A stretch of DNA of 63,663 bases, the filler included, from Basidiobolus ranarum (taxonomy: Eukaryota): assembly GCA_040143965.1 (NCBI GenBank). It is 47 parts of 47 records of this genome, joined end to end, with 100 filler letters (N's around TTAATTAATTAA, not from the genome) between each part and the next. Parts side by side here need not be neighbours in the genome. Positions count along the whole stretch, not along the records: positions 50,247 to 51,499 come from JASJQH010012688.1; 46 more parts are not named here. The stretch is one strand, 5' to 3'. The notes beneath the pieces were generated by a model that ran no database searches, was not told where the DNA came from, and saw only the letters and a list, made by a program, of their open reading frames with translations. Below are positions 10,911 to 62,413 of this stretch, one piece after another. The position numbers were made by a program, and so were the translations under genes. The stretch's first letter is position 1. Each line of letters opens with the position of its first letter.

Positions 10911-11695
10911 AAGAAATGATATTAAAGGCTATTTCTTCTTGATGAGCAGTGGACATGAGTGTCATAAAGGTTGTCTCATGTGTTACAGCACCTGATGATA
11001 GCAGCCTTCCATCAATTACTTTCATGAGGACTGGACTAGATTTCTTGATTGTTGTGATAGAGTAGGATTTTATAAAGGCAGAGTCAATAAAACAGAAGGA
11101 AGCACCAGAATCAAGAAGTGCAGTTGTTTTTATTGACTTGGAATTTGGTAGCAGGAGTGTAATGGGCAGCTTTAATGATTCATATGACTGCAGCAAGTGC
11201 GATGTATGGTGAAGATACATTTTTGAAGATGGTTTGCCCAACTGCATGCCCATTATTGCAGCTGGGCATTGCAGTTTTCCAAGGGTTGGGAAGAGTTCTC
11301 TTGTACTTGCATATTGTTGATCTTAAGTCCAAGATTCTTCTTTGGACAGATTCTTGCTACATATCCAGGAGCTCCACAATAGAGGCAAAGATTCTCTTGT
11401 TGGTGTTGATATTTTCCTCAGGGCTAAGCTTTCTGAAGCAAGTGCTATCAATTTGCATTGGGTCATCAGCTTGAGCTGTATTTTGTGTTTGATGGAAGGG
11501 GGGTCTGAAAGTAGATGATGAAGGAGAGAAGAAAGGAACCATATTTCTTTGTTGTTGTCTTGCAAACAACCAGTTGTCCCATTTAACTGCCTGGTGGATA
11601 GCATCAGACAAGGTCACTGGGTCAGCCATAGTGAGTAAAAGATCCTTAATATTTTCTCAGAGTCCATATTGGAATTGGCTGATCAGGGCAGATTC
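10911..11695 (-). mobile_element. Ty3/gypsy gag C-terminus and aspartic protease, degenerate
   Basis: PMQID gag motif, a decayed CCHC region, and ALLDSGAS...VIDGR protease. Confidence 0.88.
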
Positions 11696-12309
11696 TGTAA
11701 AAGTATTTGGGAGCCTGTTGGAAGTGGTTTGGAGAATTAAAGGAATTGGTGGTTTTCACTTGTTGATTTATTGAGTAGAAAGTTGACATTTGTAGTTTTG
11801 TCAAGATGTAAACAAACTAACATGTAGAATATATTAAGGAAGGTCCCAGGAACATGTGTGCAACATTTGGGGCTTCTAGCACAAGTCTGAAAAATCTATA
11901 TATCTCAGAACTTCTAAGTTGGTAAAAATATTCTAAATAAATTCCAATTGAGAATAATTGATAATATCTTGTTGAATTTTAAGATAACTAAGTACTAAGC
12001 TATATAGGACTATATAGGTGTTTAGGCAATGCTAATTTTAACACTCTCTCTCAACTAAACAGTCATATAAACTAATCCTAATAAAGGTCTAAATTTCTCA
12101 AATTTCTGTCTAGCTAATGGTTTGGTTAATATATCAGCAATCATGTCTTCTGTAGAACAATAAGTTAAGTCNNNNNNNNNNNNNNNNNNNNNNNNNNNNN
12201 NNNNNNNNNNNNNNNTTAATTAATTAANNNNNNNNNNNNNNNNNNNNNNNNNNNNNNNNNNNNNNNNNNNNTCTAAAGTTCCTCCAAACAGCCCATATTT
12301 TACCAATTG

Positions 12310-13632: not shown

Positions 13633-14892
13633 GAACTGGCTCGCTACCTGACATCACAAATGTAGTCCGCAAAGCTTCGTGACGCCAAATAACTTCGAGT
13701 ATAGACTGCTTTAACGCATCAACATTCAGATCACTGGATATTGCCAATGTAAGTGGCATGTTGTAGAAAGGGCTATTTGGAATTAGCTCATTCATAAACC
13801 AGAGCCTTTCTTGAGCAAAAGATAGTGGAAATTGATTTCTCAGTACTACTTGTTTGATATCAGGAATAATGTATCTACTTCCAGTATTAGCCTTATTGAT
13901 ATTGATAAGCCTTTCATTCAAGGATGCCACTGTAGGAGCCTCAAAAAGTAATCTCAAAGGTATTTCCTGGCCAAGTGCAGCGCGAATACGGGAAATTACT
14001 TTAGTGGCAGACAAAGAGTGACCTCCTAGTTCGAAGAAATTTCCAAGAATGCTAATCTTTTCGATACCCAGGATATCGGTAAAGATACTTGCGAGAGATT
14101 TCTCTAACTCCGTCCTTGGCTGGATAAAATTCTTTTGGTTTTCGATATAGGAAATTGTGGGGGCCGGCAATGCTTGACGATCAATTTTACCATTTGGTGT
14201 GAGTGGCAGAGAATCCATTACCACAAATGAGCTAGGAACCATGAATTTGGGCAGTGTAGCTGTGAGTTTGTCGCGCAGAGATTGAACATGGGGTTGATTT
14301 ATAACACCAGGCTCAGCTAAGCATTCATCTATGTTACCATAAGTATTCTGGTCAAATGCAGTTCCCCATTCATCCACTTTCTGAGTATACATTCCAGAGG
14401 TTGATTTGGAATCTACAACGACATAAGCGACTAGTTGTTTCTCACCAGATGAATGTTTACGAGCAACCACTACACATTCCTTAATTGAATCTTGTTGCAA
14501 GAGAGTGTTTTCTACTTCACCCAATTCGATTCTGTAGCCACGAATTTTCACCTGATGATCCATGCGCCCTACAAATTCAATATTACCATCACTTCTAAAA
14601 CAAGCCATATCTCCAGTACGGTATATTATCTCTCCATTACACTCAGAATTAGGATTGGTTACGAATTTTTGAGCCGTCATTTCGGGGTGATTGAGGTAGC
14701 CTCTGGCCAGTCCATCGCCAGCTACACATAACTCGCCGACAAATCCAATCGGAACTGGGTTGAGATTGTTGTCAAGAATATATACTCTGCTATTAGATAG
14801 TGGTTTTCCAATAGGAATATTGTTTGAGATTTGGTTAACCTCGTACCAAGTGGAGAAGGTGGTGTTCTCGGTAGGACCGTATACGTGTAATA
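13633..14892 (-). CDS. Non-ribosomal peptide synthetase, partial (C-terminal half of an A domain, PCP, start of a C domain)
   Basis: One open, intron-free frame across the whole contig: HVYGPTENT (A5), GELCVAGDGLARGYL (A6), YRTGD (A7), GRMDHQVKIRGYRIELGE (A8), LPKFMVP (A9), NGKIDR (A10), FFELGGHSL (PCP), PLSFAQERLWF and RHEALRT (C domain). Confidence 0.97.
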
Positions 14893-14992: not shown

Positions 14993-16252
14993 TGTGAAGC
15001 AACAAAAGAATCAGTATGGTTAAGGAAACTCTGAACTGATTTGGGATATTGTCAAATCACACCAACTACAATATTTCAAGATAATCAAAGTTGAATCAAA
15101 TTGCCTAAAAGTCCCATGTTTCATAATAGAAGCAAGCATATAGATATTCAGCATCACTTTATTAGAGAGATTATAGAGAATAAGTTTAGTGACTAAATGT
15201 ATTGTTCTACAGAAGACATGATTGCTGATATATTAACCAGACCATTAGCTAGACAGAAATTTAAGAAATGTAAACCTTTGTTAGATTAGTTTATGTTGGA
15301 TAATTAATTTTTATTCCACATCATAGTTAACTTCAGTTATGTTACATATGTCTGAAACAGAAAGCAATGTATCTATAGCCCCTATATTCTAAATAGGAAT
15401 ATCTCTATATCTATATAACAAGTATGTCATATTACCCCCACTTATCTATTATATCTCATACACAAACTCCTGAATATCTCAAACAATTGAGTTACTTTTC
15501 TATTATATAAGTGACCCTATACTCTTAAGAATAAAGTAACCCAAACACACTATCCCCTGACAGAAATACGATCAATTTGATCTTGATTGGATCCACCCTC
15601 CAAAAGAGCAAAACTGTCAGAGAACCATCACAATATTGGTGGCTTGCATTCTGCCAGGGATTCTGATGGTGCAATGGCAGTTTCATGACAGTATTTTGAT
15701 GGTATTTGTACATGTTAAAACATTGATCCTCAAATTTGGTATGCACAATTCAATATCCAGCAATTTTTGCAAAAATATAATTTTTGAATGGCAAATTACT
15801 GGGTTTACTGCTGTAAGAATTTGATTTAATATGCATACAATATTTAGGTATTTTAGGCTTTGCATTCCAGCCATATTGAGAATCAAAAAATATAAGAATG
15901 TTGTTATGTTTAGTCTCTACATATGCACATACTTGACTGATTAAACATAACTCAACAACATCAATATGCTTTACCAGCAAACTGGCAGTGGAAAAATTGC
16001 TAAACATCTGAAATTTTGAATAGCACTGACACTTGGCAAGGAGCTGACTCTTTGTTGGATAATTAATCTTTATTTAACATCATAGTTAACTTTAGTTATG
16101 ATACATATATCAGAAACAGAAAGCAACGTATCTATAGCCCTTATATTCTAAATAGGAATATCTCTATATCTATATAACAAGTATGTCTTATTACCCCCAC
16201 TTATCTATTATATCTTATTACACAAACTCCTGAATATCTCAAACAATTGATT
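14993..16252 (+). mobile_element. Nested stack: copia RNase H, then LTR-A (15294..15554), interrupted by CACTA terminus A (15555..16052), interrupted by another LTR-A (16053..)
   Basis: Direct sequence identity to the other copies of each family, with sharp junctions. Confidence 0.85.
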
Positions 16253-18969: not shown

Positions 18970-19102
18970 NNNNNNNNNNNNNNNNNNNNNNNNNNNNNNN
19001 NNNNNNNNNNNNNTTAATTAATTAANNNNNNNNNNNNNNNNNNNNNNNNNNNNNNNNNNNNNNNNNNNNCATAACCTATTGAAAATATTTAGGGAGAAAT
19101 AT

Positions 19103-19175
19103 TGGTCTGGCCAGGATTTGAACCTGGGACCTCCTACACTCTAGCAAGATGCTGTAACCACTGAGCTACCAGTCC
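19103..19175 (-). tRNA. tRNA-like sequence (pseudo-tRNA) inside the 3' end of an LTR, followed by a copia-type PBS GGTTATG (19070..19076)
   Basis: 73 nt, GGACTGG-TAGCTCAGTGG...CCAGG-TTCAAAT-CCTGG-CCAGACC-A. A and B boxes are intact; the anticodon stem is imperfect. Confidence 0.8.
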
Positions 19176-19871
19176 TTGTATGCTGTTGTTACAAATTTGG
19201 ATTATCAGACAAAAGCAATGGCAATTTTGGAGACAACATAATGTCTCAATCAACACAATATTTTGTACACATAAAATGCATAAGCAAACCTTGACTGTCA
19301 CCCAGTTTCATATCTACACCTTTCTTACATGTCTTGCAATCACCGAAACAAGGAAAGAAATGCAAATATCTCCAGAATTACTGGATGAATCATTACTAAA
19401 CTTTAGCGAGATCATTTCCCGTTATTATTCTACTTCAAATATAAATTTTAAAATGAACCAACCACAGAGACAAAAGTTACAAGCCATTGGAAACAGGCCG
19501 TCAGTATTATATACATGTTTTGAAATTAGCACACTCCCAAATCTGGCAGGAATGCCACTTGATTTTCCCCTGATCAACCCTATAAAAATAGCACCATCAA
19601 AATAAAATTAATCAGTCAATTTATCGGTGAATTAAGTCCCAAAATTGCACTCACCTCAGGAACCAGCCTCAATATATGGTAGCAGCAATTTATTAAGAAA
19701 GATACTCCACAGAAGAAAGCACAAAGAATCTAAAGAAGTAAAAGCAAAAGACAAGAAAGAATGTCATGGAACCAAGGAAACATAGAAATGTCAGATGCAT
19801 GGATGACTACAGTAACAGATATACTTGTGGAACTAAAGGAATAAGCAGCAGGACAAGAGGCCAGGATCCCA

Positions 19872-20297
19872 GTGACAACAGCCATGTATCATGGCAGACC
19901 AAATGAGAGTGTAGTAGCATGGTTAATACAGACAGAACAGGCCTTTAATACAAATTCAATCAGTGAAGACAAGAAGATGGCAGCAATAGGAAGCTATCTC
20001 CAAGATCTAGCATTGTCTTGGTATCAAGGAAGACTTCTACAAGCAGAAGCTCAGAACACTACTGCTTTCCCTAACTGGAGTGCATTCAAAACCAACATCA
20101 AAGCCTTCTTCTTACCACTCAACTTCCAGCTCATCCACAAAACACAGTTAGAAAACCTAAAGCAGAAGAACAAAGTCTTGGCATATGTCCAAAACTTCAA
20201 GAACATATTGGCACAGATTATTTCTATGGAAGAAGGTGACAAGATACACTACTTCCTTAGAGGACTAAGAACCAAAACCAGGCAAGAAGTAGTATAA
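19872..20297 (+). mobile_element. Ty3/gypsy gag (Retrotrans_gag-like capsid) fragment
   Basis: YHGRPNESVVAWL...YLQDLALSW...LKQKNKVLAYVQNF...FLRGL. Confidence 0.85.
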
Positions 20298-20427
20298 ACG
20301 TTAGGGTATGGATGTTCTGGTAAGGGTNNNNNNNNNNNNNNNNNNNNNNNNNNNNNNNNNNNNNNNNNNNNTTAATTAATTAANNNNNNNNNNNNNNNNN
20401 NNNNNNNNNNNNNNNNNNNNNNNNNNN

Positions 20428-32639: not shown

Positions 32640-33895
32640 TGAGATCCGTGATTAGGTTCCATGAATCCATAAGCAGTTTCTCCGAGAACAGCCAAATCTG
32701 TACCAAGAGCCTCCTCATCATCACGAAGACGTAAACGAAGTCCGCACTTCACCATCACCCACAAGATCAAATAAGTCATACCAAATGACCAAATGGTAGC
32801 TGAAGCAATACCGGCCATTTGAATAGGTACTTGAATCCAATGTCTATCGAACCAACCTCCAAGTGGGACATCGGCACCAGCGGGGTAGCCCAAAGCCATC
32901 ACTGATTGTTGAGCGAAGATACCAGTCATGAAGGTGCCAACGATACCACTCACGTAATGTACAGCAAACACATCGAGACAATCATCGAATGGGAACAATT
33001 GGTTTTTGTAGACAACACAGTAGTAGCAGATCACGGCACCGAAGAAACCGAAAGCCAAAGATGAGGATGGGGTAACAAAACCAGAGGCTGGTGTAATGGT
33101 GGCTAGACCAGCGACAGCTCCAGTACAGATACCGACCAAGGACCACTTCTTGGTACGAAGGAAGTCAATATACACCCAGACAGCACCACCAACAGCACCA
33201 GCAATGTGAGTAACGATGACAGCATTGGCAGCTCTAGGATCAGCAGCGGATTCACTACCACCGTTGAAGCCGAACCATCCGAACCACAGCATAGCGGTAC
33301 CCAAGAATACGAAGGAAACGTTATTTGGGGTAAAGTGACCGTGCTTAGTGTAATCTTTTCTGTCACCAATGAGTAAAGCGTATGCTCCAGCAGCAGCACC
33401 TGAACCAAGATGGACGGCAATACCACCGGCAAAGTCATGAATACCAAGCTTGTACAACCAGCCCTTAGGGTTCCATACCCACATGGCAATGACATTATAG
33501 ACCAAAGTAGACCATACGAATAAGAAAATGATTACTGGTCCGATCTTCATACGTTCAGCAGTTGAACCGAAGGCTAGGGCTGGAGTAATAATGGCGAACA
33601 TACACTGGTAGATGAAATAAACCCCACCAGGGATAGTAGGAGCATTAGGATGTGGCTCCGCTCCAACATGACGGGCAACGATATGATGTAAGTTACCAAT
33701 GAAGTTATTATTTGTGGTGACACTGTAGGTCAAAGAATAACCCCAGAAGTACCATTGAACGGTGACTACACATGTGGAGATCATCATGAGGAACATGAGG
33801 GAGAGAGTGTGATTAGATCTAGCAAGACCACCGTAGAAGAATCCAAGACCGAGGCACATGAGGAAAACTAGAGCAGTAGCTACTATCATCCAGGC
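32640..33895 (-). CDS. Ammonium transporter (Amt/MEP family), nearly complete, truncated at both contig ends
   Basis: GLGFFYGGL, YQCMFAIITPAL..GS.AER, HDFAGG.AVH, LWFGWFGFNGGS, GAVAGLATITP, DD.LDVFAVH. Confidence 0.97.
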
Positions 33896-39416: not shown

Positions 39417-40325
39417 CTTTTATGGAGCTATTTCTTGGAATTCCAAGAAACAACCTACCATAGCACTTTCAACAACAGAAGTATAATACATGGCTGTTGG
39501 TGAGGCAATAAAAGAAGCAATATGGTTAGGAACACTCTTAACAGATTTAGGTTTTTCTCAATTTGTACCAACTACAATACTTCAAGATAATCAAATTTGT
39601 ATTCAATACCTAGAAATCCCATGTTTCATAATAGAAGCAAACATATAGATATTAAGCAGAACTTCATTAGAGAGACTATAGAGAATAAGTGTATTGACTT
39701 AACATATTGTTATACAGCAGACATGATTCCTGATTTATTAACCAAATCATTGACTAGATAAAAAATTGAGAAATTTAGAACTATATCAGGATTAGTTTAT
39801 ATTACTATTTAATTGAGGGAGATATTGAAATTAGCATTGCCTAAACACCTATATAGTAGTATATAGCTTAGTACTTAGCTATCTTATAATTCACCAAGAT
39901 ATTATCCATAGTTCTCAATTGGAATTTATATAGAATGTTGACACCAACTTAGAAGCTCTCAGATATATAGATTTTTCAAAGTTGTGCTAGAAGGCCCAAG
40001 CTTTGCATACATGTTTCTGGGACCTTCCTTAACACATTCTACATGTGGGTTTGTTTACATTGTGACAAAACTATAAATGTCAACTTTCTACTCATTAATC
40101 TATGGGTGAAAACCACCAATTTCTCTAATTCTCCAAACCACTTCCAACAGGCTCCCAAATACTTTAACACCTGGGACCTTCCTTAACACAATCTACTTGC
40201 TAGTGTGTATAAATATTGACAAAACTAAAAATGTCAACTTTCAACTTAATAAATCAATAAGTTAAAACAACCAATTTCTCTTATTTTCCAAACCACTTCC
40301 AACAGGCTCCCAAAATACTTGACAG
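39417..40325 (+). mobile_element. Copia RNase H, PPT and 3' LTR-B, with a tandem duplication of the LTR 3' half
   Basis: KKQPTIALST, KHIDI, and a GAGGGAGA purine tract. CTGGGACCTTCCTTAACAC occurs at 40017 and again at 40171. Confidence 0.85.
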
Positions 40326-41430
40326 TATATAGATATCAGACAGCATCTTATTGGAGAAACTGTAGAAAATGAGTATATTGACTTAACTTACTGCTCTACA
40401 GAATTATGATTGCTAACATGTGTTGGAGGATCTTGACATAAGTGGGATAGACTTTGTGTATTAGAAGCAACTTATAATAGTGTGCTTAAGTAATTTTATT
40501 CTTAACAGTATAAGGTGACATATATAGTAGAAAAGTAAATCAATTGTTTGAGATATTCAGGAGTTTGTGTAATAAGATATAGTAGATAAGTGGGGTTGAT
40601 AAGACATACTTGTTATATAGATATAGAGACATTCCTATTTAGAATTGAGTGGCTATTGATATATTGCTTTNNNNNNNNNNNNNNNNNNNNNNNNNNNNNN
40701 NNNNNNNNNNNNNNTTAATTAATTAANNNNNNNNNNNNNNNNNNNNNNNNNNNNNNNNNNNNNNNNNNNNCAAATTGCCAGAGAGATGGGAGAGTTGTAT
40801 CGCTATCGATGGAAATTACTTTGAATAAAATATCTTTTCTCACTTTCATAAAATATACGTTTATGTGTACAACTCGAAAGGGCAGTTTCATATGCATACC
40901 TCTGGTATATTTGTAAAGAGGTTTACGCTAGTAGTAACAATTGAAGTTTTAGTATTATATAGTCTAATATCTCCAAGTTTAATCAGCTAGTTTTGCTTCT
41001 ACGATTTATGTTTGCTTTGCCTCTCACTGGTTGCTAATTCTGAGTTCATTTCAATTTTTACTCTATTGTATTGAGAGCAATTGATAGAGTGTTGCTCATG
41101 GTGTATTTTATCTGCTTGCATGTAAATAAGTGATATAACATAGCTGATTAATGTGTAACTTTATTGAAATGTAACTTGTTCAATAACTTAGGACATACTG
41201 TTCTACACAATTAGCAAGGCTTACTAAGATAAAAGTACAAAAATGTGAGGCTCAATTAATAATCATGGAGTCAAAGGAGCGAAGGTTACGACCTTAATTA
41301 GGTCAAATATGATACTGTACAAATGATTATAGCTCGCTACGTATCAATAGGAGCTTCTTTAAAGAACTCTTGGACGGATTTCCCAACTCCCAAGTTGCCA
41401 ATTGAATAAGGCTTTGCATTCTACAACTGC

Positions 41431-50146: not shown

Positions 50147-50251
50147 NNNNNNNNNNNNNNNNNNNNNNNNNNNNNNNNNNNNNNNNNNNNTTAATTAATT
50201 AANNNNNNNNNNNNNNNNNNNNNNNNNNNNNNNNNNNNNNNNNNNNGGGAA

Positions 50252-50533
50252 TGTTGAAAGTCTGGTGACTTGTGGTACAAGCAGTAATTCCCAAAGAGGA
50301 AAATATGGAGTATGGTGACTGCATCTGAACACAAAGTCTAAGGCCAATCAGTTGCTTATATAGCTGAAATGTCAAAGTACCATACATTGACAGACTAGGT
50401 TAAGGTTCCCTAGCAATATAGGCATAGCATACAAGGACTGGTAGCTCAGTGGTTAGAGCACCTTGCTAGAGGGAAGGAGGTCCCAGGTTCAAATCCTGGC
50501 CAGACCAATATTTCTCCCTAAATAATTTCAATA
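50252..50533 (+). mobile_element. Complete 282-bp LTR (TGTTGAAA...TTTCAATA) containing a tRNA-like unit
   Basis: Imperfect inverted ends, preceded by purines (GGGAA). The 3' portion is shared with 19077..19184 and 62170..62313. Confidence 0.75.
50435..50507 (+). tRNA. tRNA-like sequence in LTR (positions 34-36 read AGA; short variable loop; probably not a functional tRNA)
   Basis: GGACTGGTAGCTCAGTGGTTAGAGCACCTTGCTAGAGGGAAGGAGGTCCCAGGTTCAAATCCTGGCCAGACCA folds as a cloverleaf with A3-A70 and G31-G39 mismatches. Confidence 0.82.
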
Positions 50534-51769
50534 ATATGACCCTAACCCAGCAAAGAGAGGTCTTAGGCAACTGTTGCTTTAATTTGCAGAATTTACTCAA
50601 GATTGTATTTATTTTGTTGGAGGATCTTCACATAATGGAGTTAGACATTTTATATTAGAGAGAACTTTTGGTAGTGTTTTTATTTACTTTACTCTTATGA
50701 AAATTAGGTGATGTATATAACAGAGAAGTATATCAATTGTTTAGATGTTGAGGTGTTTTGTAATAAGATATAATAGATAAGTGGGGGTAATGAGACATAC
50801 TTGTTATATAGATATATAGATATTCCTAATCAAAATATAGGAGCTGTAAATATGTTGCTTTCTATTTCTAGTATATGTATCATAACAAAAGTTAACTAAG
50901 ATGTTAACTAAAGGTTAATTATGCAAAATATTTTTGTAAAGTGCTTTTATCTACTAATTAGTAAGATTATCTTTATCACACATCTAACAATTGAGTTCAT
51001 TTATAAACATGTAGAGCATGTTCATTATGTAAACATTTTGGGACTTTGTTTGAAGTGCTTTCTAATTCAAAGAATTGAGGGTTTTCACTTTGTTATTAAT
51101 TCAGAAAAGAGTTGACACTTATAGTTTTGTCAAGAAAAACAAACTAATGTAAAAAATGTGCTAAAGGGAACTGGGGAAACAGTTGGTCTTCACTTACTGA
51201 CTTAGTCAGCACAGAGTTGACATACATTTGGGAGTCATCATGTTGAAGATATTGGCACATAACTCCCACAGAATATGCAATATCTGGCCATTTTCCAACT
51301 GGAGCATACATCAAACTACCAATCTTCAATTGACAAGAAAACTTCTGGCTTTTATTGGAATCCAAGAATATTCTTAAAGTGGTTGGAGGCCTGTTGGAAG
51401 TGGTTTGGAGAATTAGAGGAATTGGTGGTTTTCACTTGTTGATTTATTGAGTAGAAAGTTGACATTTATAGTTTTGTCAAGATGTAAACAAACTAACGTN
51501 NNNNNNNNNNNNNNNNNNNNNNNNNNNNNNNNNNNNNNNNNNNTTAATTAATTAANNNNNNNNNNNNNNNNNNNNNNNNNNNNNNNNNNNNNNNNNNNNT
51601 GATAGTGCCAGATTGTGCTGCATATATCATATTGGATAAAGTATTCTAAAATTTATGTGGCACAATTTGGTACTATCCAACACCCTCTGGCATGATCAAA
51701 TTCAATCACATTTACTCTAATATATAGATCCAAGGTCTGATAAATCCTGGCTCAATAGAAGAAGTCCGA

Positions 51770-60669: not shown

Positions 60670-62195
60670 TATATTTATATCTATATTGTGTTGAAATTAG
60701 CTTTATCCAAACACCTATATAGTCTTATATAGCTTAGTATTTTGTTTTCTTATATTGAACTAAGATATCTCCCATTATTCTCATGAGGAATTTACTTAAA
60801 AGTTTGAAGATATATAGATTTTTCAAAGAGGTCCCAAACTTTGTACACATGTTCCTGGGACCTTCCTTAACACATTCTACACATTAGTTTGTCTATATCT
60901 TGACAAAACTATAAATGTCAGCGTTCAACTCAATGAATCAATAAGTGGGAACCACCAAAATCTNNNNNNNNNNNNNNNNNNNNNNNNNNNNNNNNNNNNN
61001 NNNNNNNTTAATTAATTAANNNNNNNNNNNNNNNNNNNNNNNNNNNNNNNNNNNNNNNNNNNNTTCCTTCTGGTGATGAAGCGTCTCTATGTTTGCTCGA
61101 TTGAAAGCAAAGTGCAAGGCTAGGTGCCAGTGATAACTCTTGGACATGTTAGCGAGTCTTGCTATTGTCCAAGACAACGAATTTTGAACTTTGACCTTCA
61201 GGTTTCATCCTTAACTGAGGCTGAAAGCGAATTGTTGCATATTTTTTCTTAAAATGTTACGATATGAATACTACTACGGTTTGTGATGCAGCAATGGTGG
61301 GCTCTAGGCAATGCTAGTGAACTGTTTGAGCCAATACCATTTCGAGGGAAAAAAGTCTCATATAACTCCCTTGCGTTGTTTGTTCCAGTAGCCTTTACCC
61401 AACTTCACGTAACATATTAATGACACTAGGCCACGTGTGTACCATTCTATGTCACTCCTGTTGCTACGAACAAGCATTGAAGCCCCCTCTTTCACATAGA
61501 AGGCCAATTTACTATTAAACTGTCACCACTTTCACATTGCATCAAACTGATTCGATTTTGGCGCCATTCATTTACAAATTGTGATAAATTGATAATCACC
61601 AAACTAGGTAGATTCAATCTTCTGTAAGGTATAGTTTACTTTCAAGTAGATGATGGACCGAGTATGCCACTGATTTCAAATTTAATTTTATAATAGTGGC
61701 AATTTCAATTCTGTTTGGCATTGGTGATGAAGGCAATATTTTCAAAATACTTCTTTGAAATAAACATGCTGTACGAGTGGCTTTTATGGCTGATTATGGA
61801 TTTAAACCAGTTGCCCTACATTTAACGGTACTCCTAACATCAAATATATTGATGGCGAGTAGCTTTGTTTACTTGACTCAAAAATGAATGCTGTTGAAGT
61901 TAATACAGTCAGCCTATGAGTCATTCTTTTGCATAGCTAAATATAGGTGCCTAAGAGTACAAACTAAAAATCAGTTTGGACACAGATAAACAAGGCTTCC
62001 AGTGCAAAAGGGTCAGCAGGCTCCTTTTCATCATGAGAAAACTATTGGTCAAGCTCCCTGCCTTCCAGCTGTGGAAATATTTTGGGAATCTGTTGGAAGC
62101 GGTTTGGAGAACTAGAAAGAGTTCATGGTTTTCATTTTTGTCAGGAGAGAAGCAAACAAATGTATAGAATATTGAACTTATTTAGGGAGAAATAA

Positions 62196-62268
62196 TGGTC
62201 TGGCTAGGATTTGAACCTGGGACCTCCTTCACTCTAGCAAGGAGCTCTAACCACTGAGCTACCAGTCC
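62196..62268 (-). tRNA. tRNA-like sequence in LTR (third copy; LTR part 62170..62313)
   Basis: Same 73-nt unit and flanks as 50435..50507. Confidence 0.82.
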
Positions 62269-62413
62269 TTGTATGCTATGCCTATATTGCTAGGGAATCT
62301 GAACCTAGTCTGTNNNNNNNNNNNNNNNNNNNNNNNNNNNNNNNNNNNNNNNNNNNNTTAATTAATTAANNNNNNNNNNNNNNNNNNNNNNNNNNNNNNN
62401 NNNNNNNNNNNNN

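Follow-up and report, generated by a model that had tools for sequence, protein, structure and literature searches.

LTRs that bear small-RNA sequences are known from the elements Cassandra and Helenus, a precedent invoked in the first-pass annotation of this DNA and borne out by the published description of Helenus (PMC10886601). Helenus, or TRIMp3, is a group of TRIMs in which the LTR includes a tRNA-like stretch whose A and B boxes are conserved (Kojima, 2024; PMC10886601). The fungal hosts given in the main text and Table 1 of that paper are Pucciniales, Agaricus, Coprinopsis and Amylostereum only, with no member of Zoopagomycota among them, and the fungal elements are there described as having 5-bp duplications and as linked to Copia elements (PMC10886601). 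According to its Results 3.5 and Table 2, Helenus LTRs are mistaken hundreds of times for tRNA-Ser-AGA and tRNA-Thr-AGT genes, and in rust genomes they make up most of the predicted tRNA-Ser-AGA, Thr-AGT and similar "genes" (PMC10886601). The Ty3/gypsy elements Ty3, Tj1, Tca8 and DGLT-A integrate at Pol III start sites, in the case of Ty3 at yeast tRNA genes, and the start-site-directed Ty3/gypsy elements covered by the cited account so far come from Ascomycota yeasts and Dictyostelium (PMC5911963). Among the search listings for Basidiobolus transposable elements, tRNA and retrotransposons and for TRIMp3, and as far as a term search of PMC11105155 goes, no such element from Zoopagomycota is described.

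The window, i.e., the whole stretch of 63,663 bases that was analyzed, consists of 47 separate contigs of 1,250–1,265 nt from a Basidiobolus-like fungus. The contigs are ordered by length and joined by linkers of the form N44-TTAATTAATTAA-N44. The window is repeat-rich, and an all-against-all BLAST showed repeats common to most of the 47 contigs. Coding fragments are also found: an NRPS fragment at 13634-14890(-) runs from the final part of an adenylation domain through a carrier domain into the first part of a condensation domain (419 codons without an intron), and an ammonium transporter fragment at 32642-33895(-) shares 91% identity over 418 aa with a protein from Basidiobolus meristosporus, the next match (80%) being from the same species. 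It is by this single marker that the source is placed as Basidiobolus-like (Zoopagomycota). Further contigs carry a kinase-type ATPase and pieces of Ty1/copia and Ty3/gypsy elements. All inferences on the tRNA-bearing repeat described below are drawn from three copies (n = 3), all within the window. Exact-pattern scans with two repeat patterns in metagenome and genome contig collections, and with one pattern in viral contigs, gave 0 matches, and a search with the 51-aa frame across 50247-50399(-) gave 0 candidates in a protein database that lacks the proteins of the window itself, as seen from the 91% of the best ammonium transporter match.

ARAGORN called exactly three tRNA-like genes in the whole window (Table 1), and all three scored above the gathering score of 29 for the Rfam tRNA model RF00005, with 48.6 bits for copy 1, 57.2 for copy 2 and 50.3 for copy 3 (E-values from 2e-7 to 1e-9). 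A permissive Rfam scan of the window returned 10 matches, in which the tRNA matches were the same three and none further. When positions 50247-50600 were compared with the 47 contigs by BLAST, two matches besides self were found, each on its own contig: copy 3 is 95.1% identical to copy 2 over 144 nt, and copy 1 is 95.4% identical to it over 108 nt. ARAGORN, Rfam (49–57 bits) and BLAST thus agree with the initial observation that the same 73-nt cloverleaf occurs on three contigs, an observation that is real and goes beyond chance.

Table 1. Features of the tRNA-bearing repeat and of the sequences adjoining it, with positions counted along the window.
Feature	Positions	Strand	Remarks
Copy 1 of the repeat	19077..19184	-	108 nt: 9-nt leader, tRNA-like unit and 26-nt tail
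tRNA-like unit, copy 1	19103..19175	-	Non-standard pairs 4/21
Putative 5' LTR of nested Ty3/gypsy element	19184..19674	+	491 bp; starts TGTTG (TG at 19184 or 19187), ends TCAATA
Primer-binding-site-like sequence	19677..19688	+	TGGTAGCAGCAA; 2 nt (TA) after TCAATA
gag open frame of nested Ty3/gypsy element	19845..20297	+	Retrotrans_gag 4.4e-12, Ty3_capsid 5.1e-7
GGGAA, five purines before TGTTGAAA	50247..50251	+	Possible end of a polypurine tract, or plain flank
Copy 2 of the repeat (longest)	50252..50533	+	282 nt if TGTTGAAA is the true start; 3' end TTCAATA
tRNA-like cloverleaf, copy 2	50435..50507	+	AGA anticodon, short variable arm; non-standard pairs 2/21
A box, copy 2	50442..50452	+	TAGCTCAGTGG; identical in 3/3 copies
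B box, copy 2	50486..50496	+	GGTTCAAATCC; identical in 3/3 copies
R2 segment	62065..62169	-	Adjoins the 3' boundary of copy 3 directly; filled site
Copy 3 of the repeat	62170..62313	-	144 nt; upstream part leaves the contig at 62313
tRNA-like unit, copy 3	62196..62268	-	Non-standard pairs 3/21

The BLAST matches of copies 1 and 3 stop at the identical query base, 50533, so that the common 3' boundary proposed earlier, TTCAATA at 26 nt after the cloverleaf, stands in all three copies. The tail between the tRNA-like unit and the boundary reads ATATTTCTCCCTAAATAATTTCAATA, and beyond TTCAATA the flanks of the three copies are mutually unrelated. On the other side of the tRNA-like unit, the repeat sequence of copy 2 reaches 183 nt upstream, whereas the homology of copy 1 extends over 9 nt only. 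Copies 2 and 3 differ at 2 of 45 nt upstream of the unit, at 3 of 73 within it and at 2 of 26 downstream. Since divergence is even over at least 45 nt upstream in both informative copies, the tRNA-like unit is internal to the repeat and not its 5' head. The 5' end is defined by no second copy, as the contig of copy 2 starts at 50247, 5 nt before TGTTGAAA. Copy 2 had been called complete, a description that we could not uphold: only GGGAA precedes TGTTGAAA, copy 3 is lost at the edge of its contig, and the homology of copy 1 is cut short. Our data support that the tRNA-like unit belongs to a dispersed mobile repeat and is not an ordinary tRNA gene.

A sign of mobility comes from copy 3, whose flank is itself a repeat, here called R2. 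Homology to R2 begins at the junction itself, where the first 42–44 nt of flank gave BLAST E-values of 7e-4 and 0.005, and continues beyond them as a collinear R2 stretch (E = 1e-10). On two contigs, those at 10911 and 59713, R2 passes the junction point without interruption. In both of these, the R2 sequence upstream of the junction showed no similarity to the tRNA-bearing repeat, as the alignment scores of 22 compare with shuffle nulls of 18.6 ± 2.3 and 18.4 ± 2.2, in which 22 was reached in 28/300 and 23/300 cases. The possibility that the tRNA-bearing repeat is an R2 variant was rejected, because the similarity did not exceed that of shuffles and the alignment was no more than weak beyond about 100 nt. 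A filled site beside two empty R2 sites means that the tRNA-bearing element inserted there. The repeat has the 3' terminus of a mobile element.

R2 is an abundant dispersed repeat in its own right, found at 11716-12171, 40049-40330, 51024-51164 and 51374-51499 as well as elsewhere. Its alignment comprises eight segments on six contigs, and the repeat ends in ...CTTCCAACAGGCTCCCAAATACTTTTACA. Two R2 copies lie in tandem on the contig at 39417-40670, and on the contig at 10911-12171, R2 adjoins a frame encoding a gag tail and an aspartic protease.

Copy 1 records a second insertion, this time into the repeat. Its homology breaks off 8–11 nt before the tRNA-like unit begins, precisely where a Ty3/gypsy LTR starts, and on the opposite strand the sequence at the break reads TGTTGTTAC. 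TCAATA is found about 490 nt past the break, and the gag frame follows about 170 nt after TGGTAGCAGCAA, a 12-mer that looks like a primer site for the initiator tRNA. The exact 9-mer of this primer-site-like sequence occurs twice in the window. The nested LTR has no second copy within the window, and the nested gag frame gave no match to longer proteins at E ≤ 0.001 among 357 candidates. Because the break in copy 1 coincides with the start of the nested Ty3/gypsy element, copy 1 was cut by insertion and does not represent a short form of the repeat. In this one case, the Ty3/gypsy element starts at the place where Pol III initiation would be predicted, which is notable under the LTR reading of the repeat as well. 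With about 16 of 281 positions counting as such, we estimate the coincidence at about 1 in 18, and the single insertion offers a lead on start-site-directed integration in early-diverging fungi.

The putative termini of the repeat, 5'-TGTTGAAAGT and AATTTCAATA-3', form an inverted match of 8/10. Of the 171 positions in the upstream 180 nt, this is the sole one with at least 7 matches, and it has a TG start with five purines before it. An inverted match of at least 8/10 does arise somewhere in 17.9% of 5000 shuffles of the same 180 nt. The LTR-type ends proposed in the first-pass annotation are thus backed by the TG start after GGGAA and by the inverted match, and are weakened by how readily shuffled sequence reproduces that match. 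The nested Ty3/gypsy LTR (contig 19070-20327) and the repeat have the same termini, TGTTG...TCAATA, for which the window frequencies per position are 0.002 for TGTTG and 0.00095 for TCAATA. Apart from the termini no similarity was found between the repeat and the gypsy LTR, and a relationship beyond them was rejected on a score of 18 vs a null of 19. Other LTRs in the window also begin with TGTTG(G), e.g., those at 15294-15562 and from 16053 on, which form a pair. They belong to a short structure at 15294-16252(+) that resembles an LTR element, in which two direct repeats of about 269 nt (TGTTGG...CTGACA), spaced 759 nt apart, share 91% identity over 177 nt. Its interior of about 490 nt is non-coding and recurs on four or more further contigs, and the structure may be a TRIM/LARD-type family.

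The assignment to an LTR retrotransposon family was upheld in part. The repeat is dispersed and mobile, and its termini are gypsy-like; a partner copy on the same contig was found for 0/3 copies, on contigs of at most 1.26 kb in which the repeats lie at contig ends and the sequence available downstream is 966 nt for copy 2 and 1106 nt for copy 3. A shared primer-binding site after the 3' boundary was found in 0/3 flanks, an internal region was recovered for no copy, and copy 2, alone in showing both putative ends, is not flanked by a 5-bp target duplication (GGGAA vs ATATG, 0/5). This last absence is compatible with copy 2 being the 3' LTR of a full element, and, read from the five bases in front of it, copy 2 is best interpreted as a 3' LTR with the last part of a purine tract before it. 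The 3' terminus of all three copies is TA (TTCAATA) instead of the canonical CA. With moderate confidence, we regard the 282-nt unit as a Helenus-like LTR, or most of one, that carries a tRNA-derived Pol III promoter, and it is from the features above that we infer its LTR identity and its 5' terminus.

Some narrower proposals were rejected. A miniature element of Tc1/mariner type, flanked by TA duplications, does not agree with the left flank, which is TG, or with the inverted match, which ends after 10 nt. Against a tRNA complement left by read-through of a primer tRNA, the 26 nt that separate the tRNA part from the boundary do not constitute an LTR. A primer site directly after copy 2 was considered since the 19 nt at 50537-50555(+) resemble what we take to be the anticodon arm of the initiator tRNA. 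The likeness is in the sense orientation and not to the complement, which makes it unusable as a primer site for an element oriented in this way, and it may be due to chance.

As no second copy defines the 5' boundary, the repeat could also be the 3'-terminal part of a longer non-LTR retrotransposon, DNA transposon or unclassified element, whose 5' boundary would lie outside the contig and in which TGTTGAAA, close to the contig start, would occur by chance. We consider this unlikely, with a small but real probability. In its favor, a target duplication and a primer site are absent here, an equally good inverted match occurs in 18% of the shuffles, and contig ends often fall inside repeats, many alignments reaching position 1–3 or the last base. 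However, the match is found at a TG after purines, at the sole position with at least 7/10, and the same termini are seen in a genuine Ty3/gypsy LTR element nearby. The poly(A) or microsatellite tail usual for non-LTR elements is missing as well, and the sole "truncated" copy, copy 1, owes its shortness to the nested insertion and not to 5' truncation.

The position of the break in copy 1 suggests another way of assembling the same sequence. The repeat could be a tail-less, tRNA-derived Pol III retroposon of about 108 nt, made up of a leader of 9–10 nt, the tRNA-like head and the 26-nt tail, with LTR elements integrated at its Pol III start in three copies; 50252-50424 (TG...CA) would then be a separate 173-bp LTR. 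This agrees with copy 1, which has exactly a 9-nt leader followed by the TG of the Ty3/gypsy LTR 8–11 nt upstream, and with the CA at 50423-50424, which precedes the tRNA-like unit by 10 nt in both copy 2 and copy 3, so that an LTR terminus at -8 to -11 is possible in 3/3 copies. Ty3 and several other Ty3/gypsy elements are described as integrating likewise at Pol III starts (PMC5911963). Nevertheless, two events per copy are required, and in copies 2 and 3 a single LTR family must have inserted both times at exactly one site and facing the same way. The two copies diverge uniformly over the supposed junction. The supposed 173-bp LTR had 0 matches in the window away from the tRNA unit, an A-rich or simple-repeat tail is missing, and the 8/10 inverted match between 50252 and 50533 becomes a coincidence of 0.002 per position. 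We find this assembly improbable. Carried further, the tRNA-like units of this early-diverging fungus would be active Pol III promoters at which a Ty3-like integrase directed to start sites finds its targets, with an LTR terminus 8–11 nt upstream in all three, and the "282-nt LTR" would be a 108-nt retroposon plus a position-specific LTR insertion. This extension is distinctly improbable in our judgement. If it is true, Pol III-directed integration would no longer be confined to Ascomycota and Dictyostelium, and one transposon family would be making target sites for another.

The tRNA-like unit itself is a pseudo-tRNA, i.e., a decayed tRNA copy with an intact-looking Pol III promoter. This follows from the AGA anticodon without the long serine arm, the variable region being 5 nt, and from the 2–4 of 21 pairs that are non-standard. 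The features reported for all three copies at the outset were found again in 3/3, namely identical A and B boxes, the A3-A70 and G31-G39 mismatches, and AGA without the long Ser arm. Stem substitutions at columns 22, 40 and 64 destroy a standard pair and are all uncompensated, whereas a fourth stem change, at column 27, leaves a G-T wobble. ARAGORN was unable to assign copy 1, and a run of four T follows the unit in 1/3 copies only. That the three are working tRNA genes, in a recently duplicated family with conserved flanks, is almost certainly wrong: all exceed the Rfam gathering threshold and have perfect A and B boxes, but the serine anticodon lacks its arm, 2, 3 and 4 of 21 pairs are non-standard with uncompensated pair-breaking changes, copy 1 is unassignable, four T occur once, and transposon debris surrounds all three.

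It had further been claimed that the promoter, and not the tRNA function, is being conserved. With the A box defined as tRNA positions 8–18 and the B box as 52–62, the boxes together cover 22 positions, and none of the six columns that vary among the three copies falls within them (p = 0.12). Preferential conservation of the promoter boxes is thus suggestive and not significant at n = 3 copies, and our data did not confirm the claim at the strength with which it was made.

Reading the 282-nt unit as the LTR, or most of the LTR, of a retrotransposon family in a Basidiobolus-like fungus, we propose that a tRNA-derived sequence was taken up near the 3' end of the LTR and that its role as a tRNA was lost. 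The consensus A and B boxes are kept and probably allow loading of TFIIIC and TFIIIB. By analogy with what has been proposed for Helenus/TRIMp3, the unit could provide the element with its own internal Pol III promoter; this Pol III activity, like the mode of mobilisation, is inferred. The three copies would represent 3' or solo LTRs amid nested retroelements, one of them later split by the Ty3/gypsy insertion. If the LTR reading is right, the repeat adds a new host lineage to an element type that was published in 2024, and does not amount to a new type. If confirmed, LTR elements that bear a tRNA promoter (Helenus/TRIMp3) would reach Zoopagomycota, beyond rusts and a few mushrooms, which would support the view that LTR elements have captured Pol III promoters repeatedly and independently. 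Repeat units of this type also inflate tRNA gene counts in Basidiobolus-type genomes, in the form of false tRNA-Ser-AGA.

Compared with known systems, the repeat resembles SINE2 elements in its tRNA-derived Pol III promoter, its dispersed copies and its pseudo-tRNA fold. It differs from them in that the tRNA part is not 5'-terminal in 2/2 informative copies and that an A-rich or simple-repeat tail is absent; a resemblance to a 108-nt SINE is confined to copy 1, in which the upstream break coincides with the nested LTR. With Cassandra it shares a small-RNA gene fragment, with its internal Pol III promoter, inside an LTR (PMC10886601). As described there, Cassandra carries 5S instead of tRNA, resides in plants and has Pol III transcripts that have been shown, whereas Pol III transcription of the repeat presented here is a prediction. 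The nested element at copy 1 recalls Ty3, Tj1, Tca8 and DGLT-A as these are described in PMC5911963, since its LTR starts 8–11 nt upstream of the tRNA-like 5' end. In contrast to those elements, ours is one case, the target is a pseudo-tRNA within a repeat, and targeting is a suggestion from position.

The comparison with Helenus, on the account given in PMC10886601, is the closest. The paired LTRs, primer site, purine tract and 5-bp duplication of Helenus are not seen here, and membership of the unit in Helenus is therefore not established. The 3' end is TA here and CA in Helenus, and the matching termini are here found only on Ty3/gypsy, while fungal Helenus is tied to Copia. On the other hand, the repeat has a tRNA segment with A and B boxes inside a unit of LTR size, 282 nt as compared with up to 323 bp for the LTRs of Helenus, and a majority of its copies would, as in Helenus, be expected as solo LTRs. 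The incoherent isotype and the fungal host agree with this likeness, and the class-I "tRNA-Ser-AGA" calls that the repeat evokes are typical of fungal Helenus.
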